From assembly GCA_010093705.1 (NCBI GenBank), contig MU006097.1, forward strand, positions 1,030,715 to 1,094,714: a DNA stretch of 64,000 nt, read 5' to 3'. The notes under the pieces were generated by a model. It was not told where the DNA came from. It saw only the letters and a program-made list of their open reading frames with translations, and searched no databases. This document shows, piece by piece, positions 28,701 through 40,992 of the stretch. The first letter of the stretch is position 1. Each line of letters opens with the position of its first letter. Source of the stretch: Patellaria atrata CBS 101060. Lineage: Eukaryota. The translations under genes and the position numbers were made by a program.

Positions 28701-28772
28701 GCTCCGCTGGCGCAATGGTAGCGCGCCAGACTTCTAATCTGGAGGCTGCGAGTTCGAGTCTCGCGCGGAGTG
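28701..28772 (+). tRNA. tRNA-Arg (anticodon TCT), intronless
   Basis: Full cloverleaf: acceptor GCTCCGC/GCGGAGT, D arm GCGC-AATGGTA-GCGC, anticodon arm CCAGA-CTTCTAA-TCTGG, T arm GCGAG-TTCGAGT-CTCGC. Confidence 0.96.
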
Positions 28773-31327
28773 CATCGCAGTGATTTCACTTTTGCGGATT
28801 ACTTTTTGTTATATCTTTGCATGCATGGTTTGAAGTGTCATGTTCTCTTTGAGGATACCTTACGGGTGGGTGCAGGCGTGAGAACTTGACGATCGGTTGG
28901 GTGGAAAGTTGCCCTTATTTTGCGATCTCGGATGGTTGATGAACTTCCAGGACTATTTTTACTGCTTTGCCATATCACTTCAAGCATACTTAATGAACAT
29001 GCTTACGGATGGAAGTGCGACTTTACGTACACCATAGCATCTTTAATACTGTTACTGTCTACAAAAGTCCAAGTGGACAACTTCAAGCTCCATCATATAC
29101 CACACTGTTCCAACTCCATACAGGCATAAATTTCTTCTCTACACAACTAGGAAACGCACCCTACCTCGAACGAACAGCGACGACCTAGAAGCAGTAGATT
29201 ACATCCAGTACATGGTTTCCTGCAAGTCCATGCGCTCTTACCTACGATTAGGATGATTCGCAAACTCGTTCCAATCCCGCCTCATCTCCATCGCGACCTG
29301 ATCCTCAGGAACGTCTTTGACAGACCTCGGATTCGGACGAGCGGTCATGTCGTTTTTGGGAGGCGCGAACCACTTTCGCAAGTACTGACGTCCGCGCTCG
29401 CAGAGGCGATCAGCGTAGTACGCAGGGGGTGCGTAGGATACAGCAAGCGTTGCTCGGACGTAGGTGTGGCAGAGCTTGTGACTCTAGGATACATTAGCCC
29501 TGTACGGGGACGGAAGTATCATGTCAGTAAAGGGAATAACCAGTATGGGCTTACAAAGTCCTGCAAGTCGGCTGCGGATCCCCGAATCTCGTTCTGGAGC
29601 ACAAAATAATGAGTTGGTCTCGTCGTGGACCTCGTCTCACCGTCGGACCCAGCTCTAAGGCCATAGTGGCTTTGGAGGTAAAAATCTAAGTAATAGGGTG
29701 ATGTGACGCTGATTTCACGAGCGTTCCTGGTGGACAGTTTCTCTGCTTTCCCCACGCAGGTTGATGTCTGCTGTTTGCGATGATAGGCTTTTTCTGATTG
29801 TCGTTCACGATGGGATAGAAGCGGACATGGTGCCGCTTCGTTGCCACTATTGCAGCGATCTCGACTCTGGGGCATTTGGCCTGCGTGTGATGCTTTTTCC
29901 ATACTCTTTCGGCTGCTGGTCGGATCTTCGATACCTCGACTTCTCGGACTGCAGTGTATTGGCTCTCACTGACTCCATCCCTATAGTAGATGACGCTTTT
30001 GGGCCATTTATTGTTGAGTAAGCAGAACTGCTCAATCCGCTTAGGAACAAGGCTCTCGAAATTTAAGATCATCTATGGTATGTCAGTTCTGTTGGTGCCG
30101 CATATAGCTATGTTTTAGCTTACCTCCTGTCTCGATTCCTGTTGAAGACTTAAAGATCCTAAAAATCTGCCACCGTAACGATCAACATTACCAACCATCG
30201 CCGTAACTGATAGGGTACCTTTCACACTTGCAGGACCCGGATGAGTAACGTCTGCTCCAATGACGAGGATGTTCTCGAAGGTCAGATTCTCAACTGCATG
30301 ATTGATCCCTCCACTCTTCAAATTGATTTTCAACGCAATATCGCCCATGAACGCCTGGAATTTATTCATATCAAATGCTTTTTTGATGGTCTGTTCCGTG
30401 ATACAGAGAGAATGCAAACCATATTTGCGATCCGCAATACGTTTAAACAACGCATGCTCAGCAATCTTCTTCCGATTCATAATCAAAATAACAAGGTTCG
30501 CCTTGTTCATTAGGGCTGTCTCAAATCCGCGATCGAGTTCATTTTCGTTTATTATTTAGAGAGGAGTTTCAGTAACATTTTGCGCCACAGGGATACCGTA
30601 CAGTTTCAAAGGGTCGTACAGGTATTGATGCCAGTTCCTGTTACGAAGTTGCGGACCGTATAGCACGTGTATCCTGATCTCTTTGTTCCCACTTGTAACA
30701 TACAGGCGTAAATCGAGGAGATTCCACTGTGCGTTTCGCCCAACCGAGATTATAGAATCTGGACGAGCTTTGGATGGTTTCGACGGTTCGCACCATCTAT
30801 TACGGTATCGTACCTATGGCGCGTTTACCTTCCTATTAGGTACAGTCATGAAACGCGGGCAAATCCTGAGAGCATCCCGAGCCTTATAAAATTGTTAGAT
30901 AATATCACCTTCGGTGTCATAGCTACTTACGAAGACAATATCCGTTCCATTCCGAATATCAGGCAGCGGCAAGCCTAGTGCAGGCAACCCTTCGAAGACA
31001 ATGCATGATCGATTCTGGTCTGGACTGCGACAAGCAAGGGTGATCATACTATCGGTGAGATCAGCAGGCAACAATTGCTTCAACTGCTGATATGGGAGGA
31101 TCTGTAGGTATTCAGCTGGGAACCATACGGTCCTGCCCGATTCACCGATGTCAACGCAGGTACGTTTTTGACCGTAATAGATTTGTCGTGTCCTGCCTCG
31201 TATGCAGTTTTCTTTACATCCTAATATCATACTTACTCGACTTGAAGAATCTCTCCACCATGAAAGTCTCCTTTGTTTTATTGTCCGTAAAACATTCATC
31301 CTGTGGCGGTCTCCTGGAAAACCCTTT

Positions 31328-31545
31328 TATGGTCTTTACTCTTCTATGGTCTTTACTCTTCTATGGTCTTTACTCTTCTATGGTCTNNNNNNNNNNNNNN
31401 NNNNNNNNNNNNNNNNNNNNNNNNNNNNNNNNNNNNNNNNNNNNNNNNNNNNNNNNNNNNNNNNNNNNNNNNNNNNNNNNNNNNNNTATGGTCTTTACTC
31501 TTCTATGGTCTTTACTCTTCTATGGTCTTTACTCTTCTATGGTCT
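31328..31545. repeat. 17-bp minisatellite (TATGGTCTTTACTCTTC)n spanning an assembly gap
   Basis: About 3.4 perfect copies on each side of a 100-N gap (31387-31486). Confidence 0.95.
31387..31486. other. Assembly gap (100 N) inside the minisatellite
   Basis: Run of n characters. Confidence 1.
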
Positions 31546-34202
31546 AAGTTTAGCATTTCGTCTAGAGCACCTTTCTCATTCTTTCTCTCTATGGTGATAT
31601 AGACTCGCAATCCGATCAGGGCTTTCTGTCTACGATCCGGATTGGGGTAATTGTTATAGAAATCGCTAACAAGGAAAGTATTATAGAATGCACTCATACA
31701 AGTGTTGACATTGAGAAGAATCTCACCCATACCCGGCTTGAGGGTGGTGAAGTACCCCCGAAGCGCGCAGAGTGTCTTATTACTCTTTGAAAGTACCGTA
31801 TTGCTTCGCTTAAGAAAAACTTTGTTCGCTCCTGATATTATGGATTCCATTGGACCTTGAGCACTTTCTAATCCACTGGAGATGGGAATATTGACGGCAC
31901 GAATTACGTTTGCTGAACCGTATCCGGTGCTGAAAAGGCTTGGGTCACTGTTTGTGAAGTCAAGAAACGTTTGAAGATCAATTTCCTTGTTGAATTTAAC
32001 CTCTAGGGTGTAGACAGTGGGATCTTGAGCCACATTCCTCCTTGGGGTTTCAACATCCAGTCGATCAATTATACATCCTTCAACGAGCGGGCCATCCCCT
32101 AAAGGTTTCTTTGAAATAATAGTGCACTCATAGTCGGTAGCCCAATGATCTCCAAATGTCCTGAGTATTCCACTATTTCCGGTTAATGCTTCCATCAGCA
32201 TTCGCTTCGTTCCTCGAGTCATCTTATTCTTCTTCTGTTGCTCAGACTCAACTTTTTGTTCCCTATTCATACCAGTCACAGTGTACTCGTAGAGTTTATC
32301 AATGCCGTTAAACTTAACAACGAAGTGATTAGTGTACACATTTTGACCTGATGCACAGTTGGTAAACCCTGGTCGGATGAAGTGGTAGCTCCCCTCGTAT
32401 TCGGTCCCTTTGATCACCTTATCTTTGATATGTCTGATGGCGTCGAGCTGATCTTGACTCGGTCTCTGGGAAACAAGATTGTGTCCATTGTTTGGAAATG
32501 CTGGAATAATAGACTGATTGTTCTGTGCCATAACTGTAACTAGGGGTTCGGCTTTTGCGCGTACCCGTCTATTAGGTGCCCGGGCAGAGGCTACAGATGG
32601 ATTAGGGGTCGGCTCTAATGGAAGCGCAAGGGATCCCGTCCCGACATTGAATCTCCGAACAGAACCAGTCGGAGATACGGGTGTTGGAATTTGAGTGGAA
32701 GTTCCTGTGGTCGCTATACGAGTTGGATTGTGTAACTGCGTCTGATTCAAGCTCAATTCAATATGAACCTGTGGCATGGGTGCATCTGCTGATTGGAGGG
32801 CACTGGCTGAAGCTTCCCTGTCGGCACTGCCCCTGAATGTTGCTCGCGGGATGGGTTTTCCAGGCGCCCATTCCTTTTCTGCTTTCCATTTTTTGCCTCT
32901 ACTGGTATTTTCGGGCCAAAGGTCGTCCAAGTCCCTGTCAAACCGGCAATCATCATTCTCGTGGGAGTTCTCAGCTCCACAGCGCTCACACAATTTAGGA
33001 CCTGGGTAAGGATTGGTTCGTTGCCGATTGGACATGTTGGACACGTTCTTGGTTGATTTCTAACTCTGTATGTAGTAGAGTATGTGAAAGAGAACCTCTG
33101 AGGTAGGAAAACAAGTACATAGGACTTTATTTTTGAGAAACCCGCTCAACTGTTATCGACACGCACGATAATAATTTATACAAACGACTAGAGAAACAAC
33201 TAGTGGCGTAGAGAACATGTGTTCCTCGTTGTGGTTAAAACACGATGCGGGCAAACATACCTCTTGGTCTATCATTTTTGACTAGTTGAAGAAGTAAACT
33301 AGGATCTGGGAAAAAAATAACTACTTAGATGTATTATGAAACAATGACATTAAGAAACAGGCTACACTTTGTATTAGTTTTGAGTCCGTTGAAATTGGTT
33401 TGCGTGTTTCAGCATCCAGAAGATCGATCCCGGGAAGCGTTGTTTCAACTGCTAGAGACCAACATGATAATATGGCAATGCCATGAAGAGAACAGATGAA
33501 AGGATTGTCAAGCAAAGTTGGATAAAAAGAAAGAATGGGGAGCTGATTGCTGAGCGGCGTGACTAACCGCGTGATAACAACTGAGGAGTCGACAGGAAAT
33601 TCAAGAACAGCAACCCACAGCATAAACCACCTTGAGAAGCAGGAAAAAGATATTCGGGTAAAATAGACCAACGAGATACCGTTGGGTGATGAATATTTGA
33701 TGAAAACATCAGACACTGCTGATTAGGTACTCACAAGACAGTGTCTATAAGCACCAAAGCTACCCGTCCAGCTCATCTCGATCCTTGGGTGAAATCAAGA
33801 ACGCATTTCATAGAATATGTCAGTAGTGGGTTCAATGAGTGATATCTCCCATATGTTCGAAAAAAGTGTCATAAGATTTGGCCAACATCTTAATGCCTGC
33901 CAAGAACCCATTTGCGCTATACTCTTTGCGGTAATAGTTACACAAAAGATATGGCTTCTGGATTAGATCGAGTGCAAGGACAGTCGAAAGTTTCTTTGTC
34001 TCTATTTTTCTTAACGTAGGAAGGTAGCTCTTGAAAAAGGAAGCGCACAAAAAGATATCAAAACTCGTTTTCGTGGTTCTAAACATGTCAGTCTTAAGTC
34101 TTTCTTCTAGGAACATTTCTTATGGACAAATTCTGTAAGTTGCGCAAATACACACATACTATAGCATTACTCATCAGTTTATAGAACAATCACTCAAACA
34201 GA

Positions 34203-37876: not shown

Positions 37877-38109
37877 ACCATTTCGTTACAATTTGTTGCA
37901 GTTCTCTTCAAAGCAAGGCACTGTTTATTTATCTAGTCATACAGTAAAACGTTGAATTCCTTGTCTTTCATTTCCCTTCGTACACATGAAGCATCAAACC
38001 CCTTTTGTAGTCCAGCAAGACTCCCAAGATATCGGCAAATAAACCTCCCTAAACATTCACAACACCGCACATGACTCACCCTTCCAGTCTCCCGCACCCC
38101 ATCCTTTTA

Positions 38110-38323
38110 ATCAAACGACCGGCAGCCCTATCCTCAACTAACTTAGCAGGGCGGTCAGGCAGTCTGACTACGATCCCCCTCCCTCTCGAAACGGTCGTCG
38201 GTTCAAATCCCTCCGGGCGGGTTTATAGGTCAATGGAGTAGCGGCAGCAAAAACCCGTCTGGGAGGTCAAGGAGGCCTACGGGCCTAATTGTTTTGTGAA
38301 TTTGAATAAATAAATTTTTTTTT
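38110..38323 (+). ncRNA. Candidate Pol III-type structured RNA or tRNA-derived SINE-like element (unidentified)
   Basis: A-box-like TAGCAGGGCGG (38144-38154), B-box GGTTCAAATCC (38200-38210), several complementary stems, a C(UACG)G hairpin at 38273-38286 and T9 at 38315-38323. Confidence 0.5.
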
Positions 38324-39214: not shown

Positions 39215-40992
39215 CTACGCCCTACCCACTTTAAACGACAAGATATACGCCACCGTCAGCAAAGTCCTCAACACAAGAAAGATCAAGCAACTTACATCAT
39301 TCTTCCCGACCTCAACGACATCATCCTCAGCGACCCTAACACCCCCAACCGTATCCACATAAGCCAACGGCGCATCGCCCATGACTTTCCTATACACATC
39401 GCCAACCGTGGCGCCCCTCCTAACGAGGACACAATCGCGAAAGACCTTGCCGTCACCGCTGCCGAAGCTGCTTGCGTTCTTGACCGGAAAGACGGGCACG
39501 AGACCAAGCAGCTCGGCCGCGCGGCTCAGCACCTGCACCACGCCCGTACCGCCGAACCTATACAATACCAGATCCTTAAGGTTCTCGACGCGGGTCTTGA
39601 GCTTCTCGTCCATCTCCTTCAGCCCGCCGCCGTCGGGGTCGCCCTCCTCGATTAGATCGTCGCGGGTGAGGAGATAGTCGTCGCCCTCAACGTAACGGAT
39701 GTATCCCTGTTTGGCCAGGCGTCTGAGAAAGACCTCTGAAATGGCGGAGGTGAGAACGAGGCTGGAAGGGGGGTGAGATTTTGCAATCTTGGCGATGTTC
39801 TTGTCGGCGTCTGGGTGGTCGATCTTGTTAAGCGCGATGACGGTCGGGAATTTCTCGTCCGTGAAGGCGTTTACCACCCTCTCGATCGTCTCGTCCGACC
39901 AGTCTTGGAGCGGTTCTTTGAGCTGCAGTTTGTCGAGACAGCGTGCCACAACCGCGGAGGTGGAGCCGTAACCGGAGAATTGCGTTTGTAGGGTTTCGAC
40001 TGCTGTTGCTTCTATGGTACAGATCATATGAGTCCTCTGGATTGAATGATGATAAGAGTGCGTTGATGAGAAAATACTCACTTACAGCTAAATGCCTCCG
40101 CTTAATACTACCCCTATATCATACATCGAAATTAGCTCTTACCCTTGAAACTGAAATACGGGTGATATAAACACCATTTCTCCATGAGATTCCCCTGTAT
40201 CCATCTTACGATCTCTGATCTCAGCCACACAATATCCTCCGAAGGGTCATATCCTCTAGTCGCCTTCCCTAGAAATACCCATCAGCCTCAATTCTCAACA
40301 ACACGGAGAGTTCCAACTAGTCCATTCCCACACCCATTCCCTTCATATCCTTCTCCCTGTTCCTCTCCCTTTCAAGTATATCTCACCCACCTTCCGCATC
40401 CGTACACCCAGACACATCCACAACATGCACCAGCGCATCGGCATGTCTCAAATCGTCTAAAAACCGATTCCCGAGACCCTTTCCCTCATGTGCCCCCGGA
40501 ACAAGTCCAGCCACATCCAGCAATTCGATCGGCACGCTTCTCTTGCCGTCGATGCAGGACCCGTAGTTCGGCTTACACTTCGCGGTTAGGGGAATATCAG
40601 AGGGGTTATGCGGCGAGTGGGCGGGGAATCGGGAGCAGGCGCAGGGGATCTGAAGGTATCCAATTGCGCGTTGGGGGTCTATTGTCGTGAAACTGGGAGG
40701 AGGGGAGGGGCTTTAGCTGAGGTGTGATCGAGGGAAGGAAGTGGGGGAGCTTACGGAAAGTTTCCTATTGAGACGGTAAGCTAATTTCTCAATTCCAAGT
40801 ATATTTGAATTGTGTCTCGTTGAGATAGCTGGTGGGACATACCTACTTTCGAAGACGCGTCTGTCAAGCTGTGCGCGCGTGGGTTAGGAATATTGGACTT
40901 GGTATAATTGCTGGCGCAACGAACCTGTTGAGTGTGGTGGATTTACCCGACGAGGGTTTGCCTACTAGACCGATTAAAGGATCTCGAGGCAT
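39215..40992 (-). CDS. Obg-family P-loop GTPase (yeast YGR210C-like), multi-exon
   Basis: [22 protein letters not shown] (G1), NFPFTTIDP (G2), [25 protein letters not shown] (G3), ALNKIDHP (G4), C-terminus ILSFKVGRA. Confidence 0.9.

Follow-up and report, generated by a model that had tools for sequence, protein, structure and literature searches.

A 64,000-nt stretch of the genome of Patellaria atrata CBS 101060 (assembly GCA_010093705.1, contig MU006097.1), hereafter the window, contains at positions 38136-38295 of its forward strand a unit that extends from an AACTAAC start through a T4 tract and is one of 22 copies dispersed over many contigs. On balance, the sequence favors a lineage-specific, dispersed, multicopy family of Pol III small-RNA genes that would have arisen from an unspliced tRNA-Arg(ACG) gene. 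The layout, copy number and boundaries of the unit, the carry-over of upstream DNA between copies and the uneven conservation along the unit are directly observed and speak for this interpretation.

Copies, promoter and relation to tRNA-Arg(ACG)

A DNA search of the genome revealed 21 places including the window copy, the others being 70-84% identical to it, and a search with the 3′ half added one decayed place. Pairwise identity between family copies is 76-95%. Both the head and the 3′ domain are found in each of the 22 places where sequenced; one copy (L020) stops at an assembly gap. Every complete copy has the same order of elements: AACTAAC, A box, 6-bp hairpin, variable pyrimidine spacer, B box, long stem with a large loop, UACG hairpin and T4G. 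The predicted transcript is ~160 nt long for the window copy and 155-184 nt, about 170, in the family. A genome scan with a 21-nt loop pattern, allowing up to three mismatches, recovered 18 copies of the family plus a further site, C30. The most decayed copy, L076 (G000:C1:1792865-1793055), is the one copy without a TATA box and has broken A and B boxes and a branch of about 0.5; a GC-rich palindrome is located upstream of it. Exact-match scans, which diverged homologues would escape, gave no match to the loop pattern in metagenome contigs and none to the head pattern in viral contigs. The 5′ pattern had 23 matches in metagenome contigs, all of them chance, with a best score of 10 bits by the family model.

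Comparison with known RNAs was undertaken with Rfam and ARAGORN. At gathering and E-value thresholds, Rfam assigned no family to the window unit (the best match, mir-1788, scored 15 bits against a cut-off of 57), which agrees with the failure of a first-pass annotation of this DNA to match the unit by eye to U1/U2/U4/U5/U6, SRP, RNase P/MRP or 5S motifs. Rfam gave no match up to E 1 at 20 other family loci, and the tRNA model RF00005 matched neither the window unit nor the 20 other loci tested. ARAGORN, run with normal settings on the window unit and on 21 loci, detected no tRNA; the earlier observation that no cloverleaf forms thus holds. SRP, U6, 5S, snRNA, RNase P/MRP and snoRNA were rejected as identities of the unit, with no covariance-model match, while SRP, U6, 5S and 5.8S genes are present elsewhere in the same genome. 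The analysis gave no support to a resemblance to hammerhead, spliced-leader, Sm-site or branch-point elements. Complementarity of the loop to a 2.2-kb rDNA fragment, one U6-like copy, SRP and 5S, considered in connection with a guide-RNA role, did not exceed that of shuffles.

The Pol III type-2 promoter layout proposed earlier was borne out. In the window copy the A box TAGCAGGGCGG (family form TGGCAGAGCGG) occupies positions 38144-38154 and the B box GGTTCAAATCC positions 38200-38210; these and the other features of the unit and its upstream region are on the forward strand. A TATA-like box, TTTTAAT (38105-38111), is a weak form of the family TTTATAT and is located at −31 to −25 from the predicted start. 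A strict TATA pattern was found in 14 of 21 copies, always at −42 to −38 from the A box, and at 25 of 420 random sites; in tRNA genes it occurs in 13 of 30, scattered over −55 to −42. The AACTAAC motif (38136-38142), the predicted 5′ end, is present within one mismatch in 20 of 21 copies and also in the tRNA-Arg(ACG) leader, the motif being found in one of 39 tRNA genes. Since the TATA box stands ~30 nt above AACTAAC, the spacing of the dispersed 5S genes of this genome, we infer that transcription would start at 38136. The unit is followed by T4G (38292-38296, with T4 at 38292-38295), the terminator form behind most tRNA genes of the genome, and by a T9 run (38315-38323), the terminator region as a whole covering 38292-38323. 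In such genes TFIIIC occupies the A and B boxes and brings in TFIIIB, with a TATA box at −30/−24 assisting (PMC10137851).

Further upstream, a block at 38055-38099 is common to other copies and aligns with that of L010, on another contig, over −81 to −36. It includes a CACATG site (38068-38073; family CACGTG), presumably E-box-like. The CACRTG-type motif, which we take to be an E-box, is found upstream of 12 of 21 copies, of one of 30 tRNA genes and at 7 of 420 random sites. In five copies (L004, L005, L006, L007 and L012; by pattern, 4 of 21) the CACGTG block is replaced, as judged by eye, by a reversed B-box-like motif ~75-110 nt upstream of AACTAAC, and in L006 and L012 GATATCAG stands before this motif, an arrangement also seen at the intron/exon junction of tRNA-Arg(ACG). 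The spacer between TATA and start is 33% identical between copies (26% when shuffled) compared to 86% for the body. The relation of TATA quality to copy identity is only suggestive (p 0.056).

The likely parent of the family, judged from alignments, is the tRNA-Arg(ACG) gene of this genome (L115). The first-pass annotation had likened part of the unit to a tRNA-Arg(ACG) anticodon arm, and this resemblance was strengthened: the anticodon-arm remnant at 38162-38174 is identical over 13 nt to the tRNA gene of L115, the gene and the family have GTCTGACTACGAT in common, and CAACTAAC is found upstream of tRNA-Arg(ACG) alone among 39 tRNA genes examined, a number that is a lower bound for the genome. 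The variable pyrimidine spacer (38175-38189) is at the place of the tRNA intron; ACGTC is present in the intron of the L115 gene and kept by the family at the matching place. The resemblance of the L115 gene to the family continues through its 3′ acceptor strand. In raw alignment score to the family tRNA-Arg(ACG) is best (46.2, compared to 42.2 for the next tRNA gene). In shuffle z-score, however, tRNA-Cys and tRNA-Ser genes do equally well (Cys 14.3, Arg(ACG) 13.5, Ser 13.3). This parentage is likely rather than proven.

Spread of the copies

The first-pass annotation had offered an either/or: a new ncRNA if the unit is single-copy, a tRNA-derived SINE if it is multicopy. The distinction fails, as there are 22 copies, yet the SINE insertion hallmarks examined are missing and fixed upstream promoter elements are retained. 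The best competitor of the small-RNA gene family, although an unlikely one, is nevertheless a tRNA-derived SINE (SINE2), one master of which would have been retroposed by a LINE and whose copies would now be dead and decaying. The anatomy is that of a classic SINE2: a tRNA-related head with A and B boxes, an unrelated body, a 3′ hairpin and a T-rich end, in 22 interspersed copies. Some plant SINEs have T tails. LINE-type RT matches are present in the genome, and Gypsy-type ones are abundant; many RT copies are rich in TAA/TAG stops, as RIP-type mutation would presumably give. The family tree is a star with branches of 0.025-0.25, none of them starred, as expected of one-master copies, and substitutions are mostly C>T and G>A (106 compared to 36 in the reverse direction), a GC-to-AT excess that fits neutral decay. 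Homology between copies stops near the predicted transcript ends, as in retrocopies, and in the first family upstream similarity does not correlate with body similarity (r −0.02). All four observations count against the preferred interpretation, as do weak selection on pairing and near-shuffle folding of the whole RNA (see below). The star tree, the substitution bias and the r of −0.02 could reflect one-master copying or, alternatively, an ancient radiation accompanied by gene conversion.

Three SINE tests nonetheless fail, and the unit is for this reason not classed as a SINE despite its SINE2 anatomy. The first is target-site duplication (TSD): in exact-match comparison of 20 copies, which could miss old, eroded TSDs, the longest shared word was 5.25 near the ends (control 5.26) and 7.15 over 150 nt (control 7.09). 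Old TSDs can indeed erode (PMC5063351). The second is the tail. There is no A-rich or tandem-repeat tail, the copies having T-rich ends only, and no LINE-shared 3′ end was found: the 3′ half matches only family copies genome-wide and, in 20 fetched loci that mostly carry an RT, had no match below E 0.05; these loci are part of 78 RT matches, and one of them was checked for a LINE ORF2 end. The third is the upstream flank, which should be unrelated between SINE copies. In the 80 nt upstream, a local score of at least 24 was reached by 11.6% of 190 copy pairs, compared to 0 of 190 further upstream, and blocks on different contigs align over −81 to −36 (L001/L010), −87 to −27 (L007/L012) and −57 to −15 (L004/L014). 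The fixed TATA, the E-box and these alignable blocks could not be delivered by a retroposed Pol III transcript. Because such a transcript, starting at AACTAAC, cannot carry upstream bases, the copied unit most likely included its promoter, as far as the alignments tell.

Upstream carry-over would also be accounted for by a selfish promoter-carrying unit, an explanation that we regard as improbable and less so only than the two taken up in the next section. Such a unit could be a solo TRIM LTR of the Helenus or Cassandra type, another DNA-level mobile element, or cDNA inserted at a TFIIIB-bound TATA, and its structure would be selected for mobility, not for the host. Ty3 inserts at TFIIIB-bound sites and provides a model for the cDNA version. 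A U6-like copy of this genome (L125, G000:C1:639983-640079), intronless and diverged in the ACAGAGA region, lies ~30 nt below a TATA box with a spacer similar to that of the family, in line with such insertion; another U6-like locus (L126, C1:675328) has an intron with a B-box-like motif. The abundance of Gypsy-type RTs also suits this explanation, as does the presence of tRNA-like promoters in fungal Helenus LTRs; the fungal Helenus families described, however, come from rusts and Agaricomycetes (PMC10886601). No paired LTRs or internal region were found in the 1.5-kb flanks, and a terminator ends each unit. The LTR signature of TG..CA with a 5-bp TSD was found in 2 of 20 copies, compared to 5.3% in the control, at unrelated offsets, and no displaced tRNA or Rfam gene adjoins the unit at 20 loci. 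The tRNA genes of the genome offer a parallel: the duplicate genes L121/L122 and L047/L048 have upstream DNA in common by eye (~85 nt in L121/L122), which suggests that tRNA genes here also duplicate with their promoters.

Folding, conservation and genomic setting

The first-pass annotation had described the unit as highly structured, a description that folding of the whole does not sustain: its span gave a z-score of −0.87, with 35 of 200 shuffles folding equally well. With 40 shuffles each, the predicted transcript had a z-score of +0.81, and only the 3′ domain reached −2.39. Across copies, the mean z-score is −1.35 for the 3′ domain and −0.36 for the whole RNA. Two 5′ helices, ACGACCG (38115-38121) with CGGTCGT (38192-38198) and GCCCT (38125-38129) with AGGGC (38148-38152), are present in the sequence as described, but are private to the window copy and lie outside the conserved unit, both needing bases upstream of the shared start at 38136. 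The arm at 38115-38121 pairs at 7 of 7 positions in the window copy and at 1-4 of 7 in 19 others (two of them mis-anchored), and the upstream-to-head duplex energy per copy equals that of swapped controls (−11.4 and −11.3). The two helices are chance features of the window copy. Of the earlier Pol III ncRNA reading, the type-2 layout and the tRNA-Arg(ACG) link stand, and the 5′ multi-helix domain falls.

The other helices of the first-pass annotation are family-wide: the long stem, the 3′ hairpin and the GTCAG/CTGAC hairpin are conserved, with 92.6% of 592 cells paired. The conserved hairpin has 6 bp, GGTCAG/CTGACT (38153-38169; GTCAG 38154-38158, CTGAC 38164-38168), with pair probabilities mostly of 0.67-0.75, and is paired in 93% of cells across the family with no two-sided changes. 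The long helix (38210-38266) joins 38210-38224 with 38251-38266 and closes a purine-rich loop at 38225-38250; in the window copy its inner 10 pairs have probabilities of 0.83-1.0. The family alignment places a deletion of 11 loop bases between 38226 and 38227. With this deletion and its weak TATA, the window copy is probably a decaying family member. The terminal hairpin AGGCC-TACG-GGCCT (38273-38286), with a CAA/TTG extension (38268-38291), has two-sided changes in three of five pairs across the family. An alternative fold with a GGUUUA/UAAACC hairpin is paired in 95.6% of cases, with no two-sided change, and is a possible competitor of the long stem in the predicted structures.

The most conserved part of the family is the unpaired 37-nt loop, with 28 substitutions compared to 53 expected (p 1e-4). 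Counted as distinct events, there are 20 compared to 33 expected (p 0.011), a value that would not survive correction for 13 regions. Variation per site is 0.039 in the loop and 0.061 and 0.088 in the arms of the long stem. The first-pass annotation had called for covariation analysis. Among the 592 cells of an alignment fitted to the structure, 12 have a two-sided change, compared to 5.0 in shuffles (0 of 500 as high); by pairs the excess is weak, 6 compared to 3.4 (40 of 500 shuffles), mostly in the 3′ hairpin. Most of the two-sided changes fall in one hairpin pair, where four copies carry the same variant. In G-C pairs, C>T changes number 31 of 354 and G>A changes 20 of 355; at unpaired sites the corresponding numbers are 20 of 411 and 36 of 533. 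Overall, this comparison of paralogues provides modest evidence for selection on RNA structure.

The GC-rich island in AT-rich surroundings noted earlier is real (55.6% GC in the unit, compared to 43.6% in the upstream and 37.0% in the downstream flank), and every motif noted with it is found at its position. The unit is located between a HET-domain gene (PF06985; 35678-37876, forward strand, defined from ORFs) and an Obg/YchF-type GTPase gene (39215-40712, reverse strand), both with their 3′ ends towards it. Among the matches listed for the GTPase, the best named one belongs to the Dothideomycete genus Patellaria (97%); the remaining 119 are at most 79% identical. An intronless, ordinary tRNA-Arg(TCT) gene, found by both Rfam and ARAGORN, is present at 28701-28772. 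On the reverse strand, 5 kb from the unit, an Argonaute gene is recognized from ArgoN, ArgoL1 and Piwi pieces (29686-33059); near 31300-31550 it is interrupted by an assembly gap that falls within a short tandem repeat.

Long ORFs flanking family copies have their 3′ end towards the unit in 20 of 24 cases. Together with the reversed B-box-like motif upstream of five copies, this would suit TFIIIC/Pol III-occupied sites that act as DNA barriers between convergent genes, the RNA being a by-product. However, long ORFs flanking tRNA genes have the same bias (21 of 28), so the convergent position is nothing special, and the most conserved part of the family is an RNA loop outside the promoter boxes; we consider a barrier very unlikely. 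A milRNA-type precursor, similar to Pol III milR loci of Neurospora, some of which have TATA-like elements or a tRNA origin (PMC3547838), with Dicer or Argonaute cutting the long stem, is scarcely credible even with an Argonaute gene nearby, as the stem has just 15-18 bp and its arms vary more than its loop, the reverse of a miRNA hairpin.

A second family, a proposed mechanism and known systems

A strict scan of 600 kb gave two matches, one tRNA and one other unit, compared to 0, 1 and 1 in shuffles. The other unit (seed G000:C2:1053960-1054110) has 29 matches in the genome and defines a second family, the details of which come from 20 fetched loci (L187-L206). In layout it matches the first family: a TATA-like box precedes the start by ~30 nt, and A and B boxes, hairpins and T4 follow. 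It has no match in Rfam and no excess of TSDs (5.47, control 5.50). The first-family model scored at most 12.6 bits on it; no homology between the families was detectable, their similar 3′ ends included. Its copies have upstream DNA in common as far as −181, which has been inherited together with the body (r 0.22, p 0.011). In 19 copies (the truncated L188 was dropped), 11 of 26 pairs of a structure predicted from the same alignment have two-sided changes, a level reached by 0 of 500 shuffles on all measures. The 5′ end of the second family resembles the 5′ strand of tRNA-Arg(ACG). Its 3′ domain includes an AUGUA/GAA internal loop, which we assume to be similar to a loop-E motif, and in L197, L200, L201, L204 and L205 this domain is joined to a different head.

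A broader reading, which we offer tentatively and would not yet back over its alternatives, is that tRNA genes of this lineage may have given rise to a whole class of genes for structured Pol III RNAs. It would comprise at least two separate families, in which each locus would have a TATA/E-box promoter of its own and encode a folded RNA with a conserved, protein-binding loop. With ~50 loci in the two families, the class would be comparable in size to the 39 tRNA matches.

The small-RNA gene interpretation implies the following mechanism. TFIIIC would bind the A and B boxes, with TFIIIB on the TATA box at −31 to −25, and Pol III would start at the A of AACUAAC and stop at U4, yielding an RNA of ~160 nt. 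RNase P and RNase Z act on transcripts with the acceptor stem of a tRNA; because this stem is gone, the predicted RNA could not be matured as tRNA. Instead, a new antisense strand would lock the old tRNA 3′ strand in a helix of 15-18 bp, which would display the conserved unpaired 37-nt loop and be followed by the UACG hairpin. A candidate job, guessed by analogy with 4.5SI and BC1 RNAs, is that of a stable decoy or scaffold RNA that would bind protein via the loop. Like the tRNA and 5S genes of this genome, the copies may have spread by DNA-level duplication that took along ~80 nt of promoter upstream of the start; the family may evolve by birth and death. Two sequencing runs cover introns and intergenic DNA evenly and without joints, and therefore represent DNA.

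If expressed and selected, the units would show the birth of new Pol III RNA genes from tRNA genes. Each such gene would be duplicated together with its promoter, and what repeat annotation lists as a SINE would in fact be a gene. If the units are mobile instead, promoter-carrying movement without TSDs itself calls for explanation. In either case it is the family that matters, and the particular window copy is of little weight.

In literature searches outside Repbase and most subscription papers, no multicopy, TATA-driven, tRNA-derived structured RNA family from filamentous ascomycetes was found; this missing precedent is weak evidence of absence. Seventeen fungal RNA structures described in PMC8216456 are mostly single-copy. 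AfuSINE2 of Aspergillus fumigatus is similar to the present family in being low-copy and tRNA-headed, with A and B boxes and no cloverleaf, and one AfuSINE2 is said to be tRNA-Arg-derived (PMC5063351). In contrast to the family, AfuSINE2 is defined by TSDs of 4-14 bp, AfuSINE2-1a has an ACT-repeat tail common to the Tad1 LINE, and the fixed upstream TATA of the family is not among the AfuSINE2 features in the available text (PMC5063351). Helenus TRIMs of fungi also combine a tRNA-like Pol III promoter with a short repeat that includes upstream DNA; compared by description, the family differs in having no LTR pair, PBS/PPT region, TG..CA ends or 5-bp TSD (PMC10886601).

The dispersed 5S and tRNA genes of this genome are similar to the family in being scattered, with mostly unrelated flanks, a TATA-like box at ~−29, T4G and occasional pairs with common upstream DNA, but they are known functional RNAs with near-identical copies, compared to 76-95% in the family. 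Several sequence types are represented among the 13 dispersed 5S rRNA matches (L052-L064); a TATA-like box stands near −29 in most of them, and the 5′ ends of two have diverged.

Rodent 4.5SI is tRNA-derived, with A and B boxes and a TATA-like box at −31/−24, and is similar to the family in being SINE-related, lineage-restricted and present in several copies (PMC10137851). The A box, B box, TATA-like box and oligo-T terminator of a 4.5SI-type gene are all present in the family. The differences are considerable: 4.5SI is an abundant RNA of 98 nt from three linked copies (PMC10137851), while the family has, in a fungus, 22 copies on many contigs with a predicted RNA of about 170 nt, and no large sister SINE family; sequence homology is not claimed.

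Dictyostelium Class I RNAs are lineage-specific, multicopy, structured ncRNA genes with conserved upstream elements (PMC7919456), and Plasmodium RUF6 is a lineage-specific, multicopy, structured ncRNA family transcribed by Pol III (PMC9670795). Both are similar to the family by analogy only; they are demonstrated to be expressed and functional (PMC7919456, PMC9670795). Should the tentative reading of a wider class of tRNA-derived genes be true, Patellaria would have, in its two families, the fungal equivalent of Plasmodium RUF6 or of the Class I RNAs of Dictyostelium.
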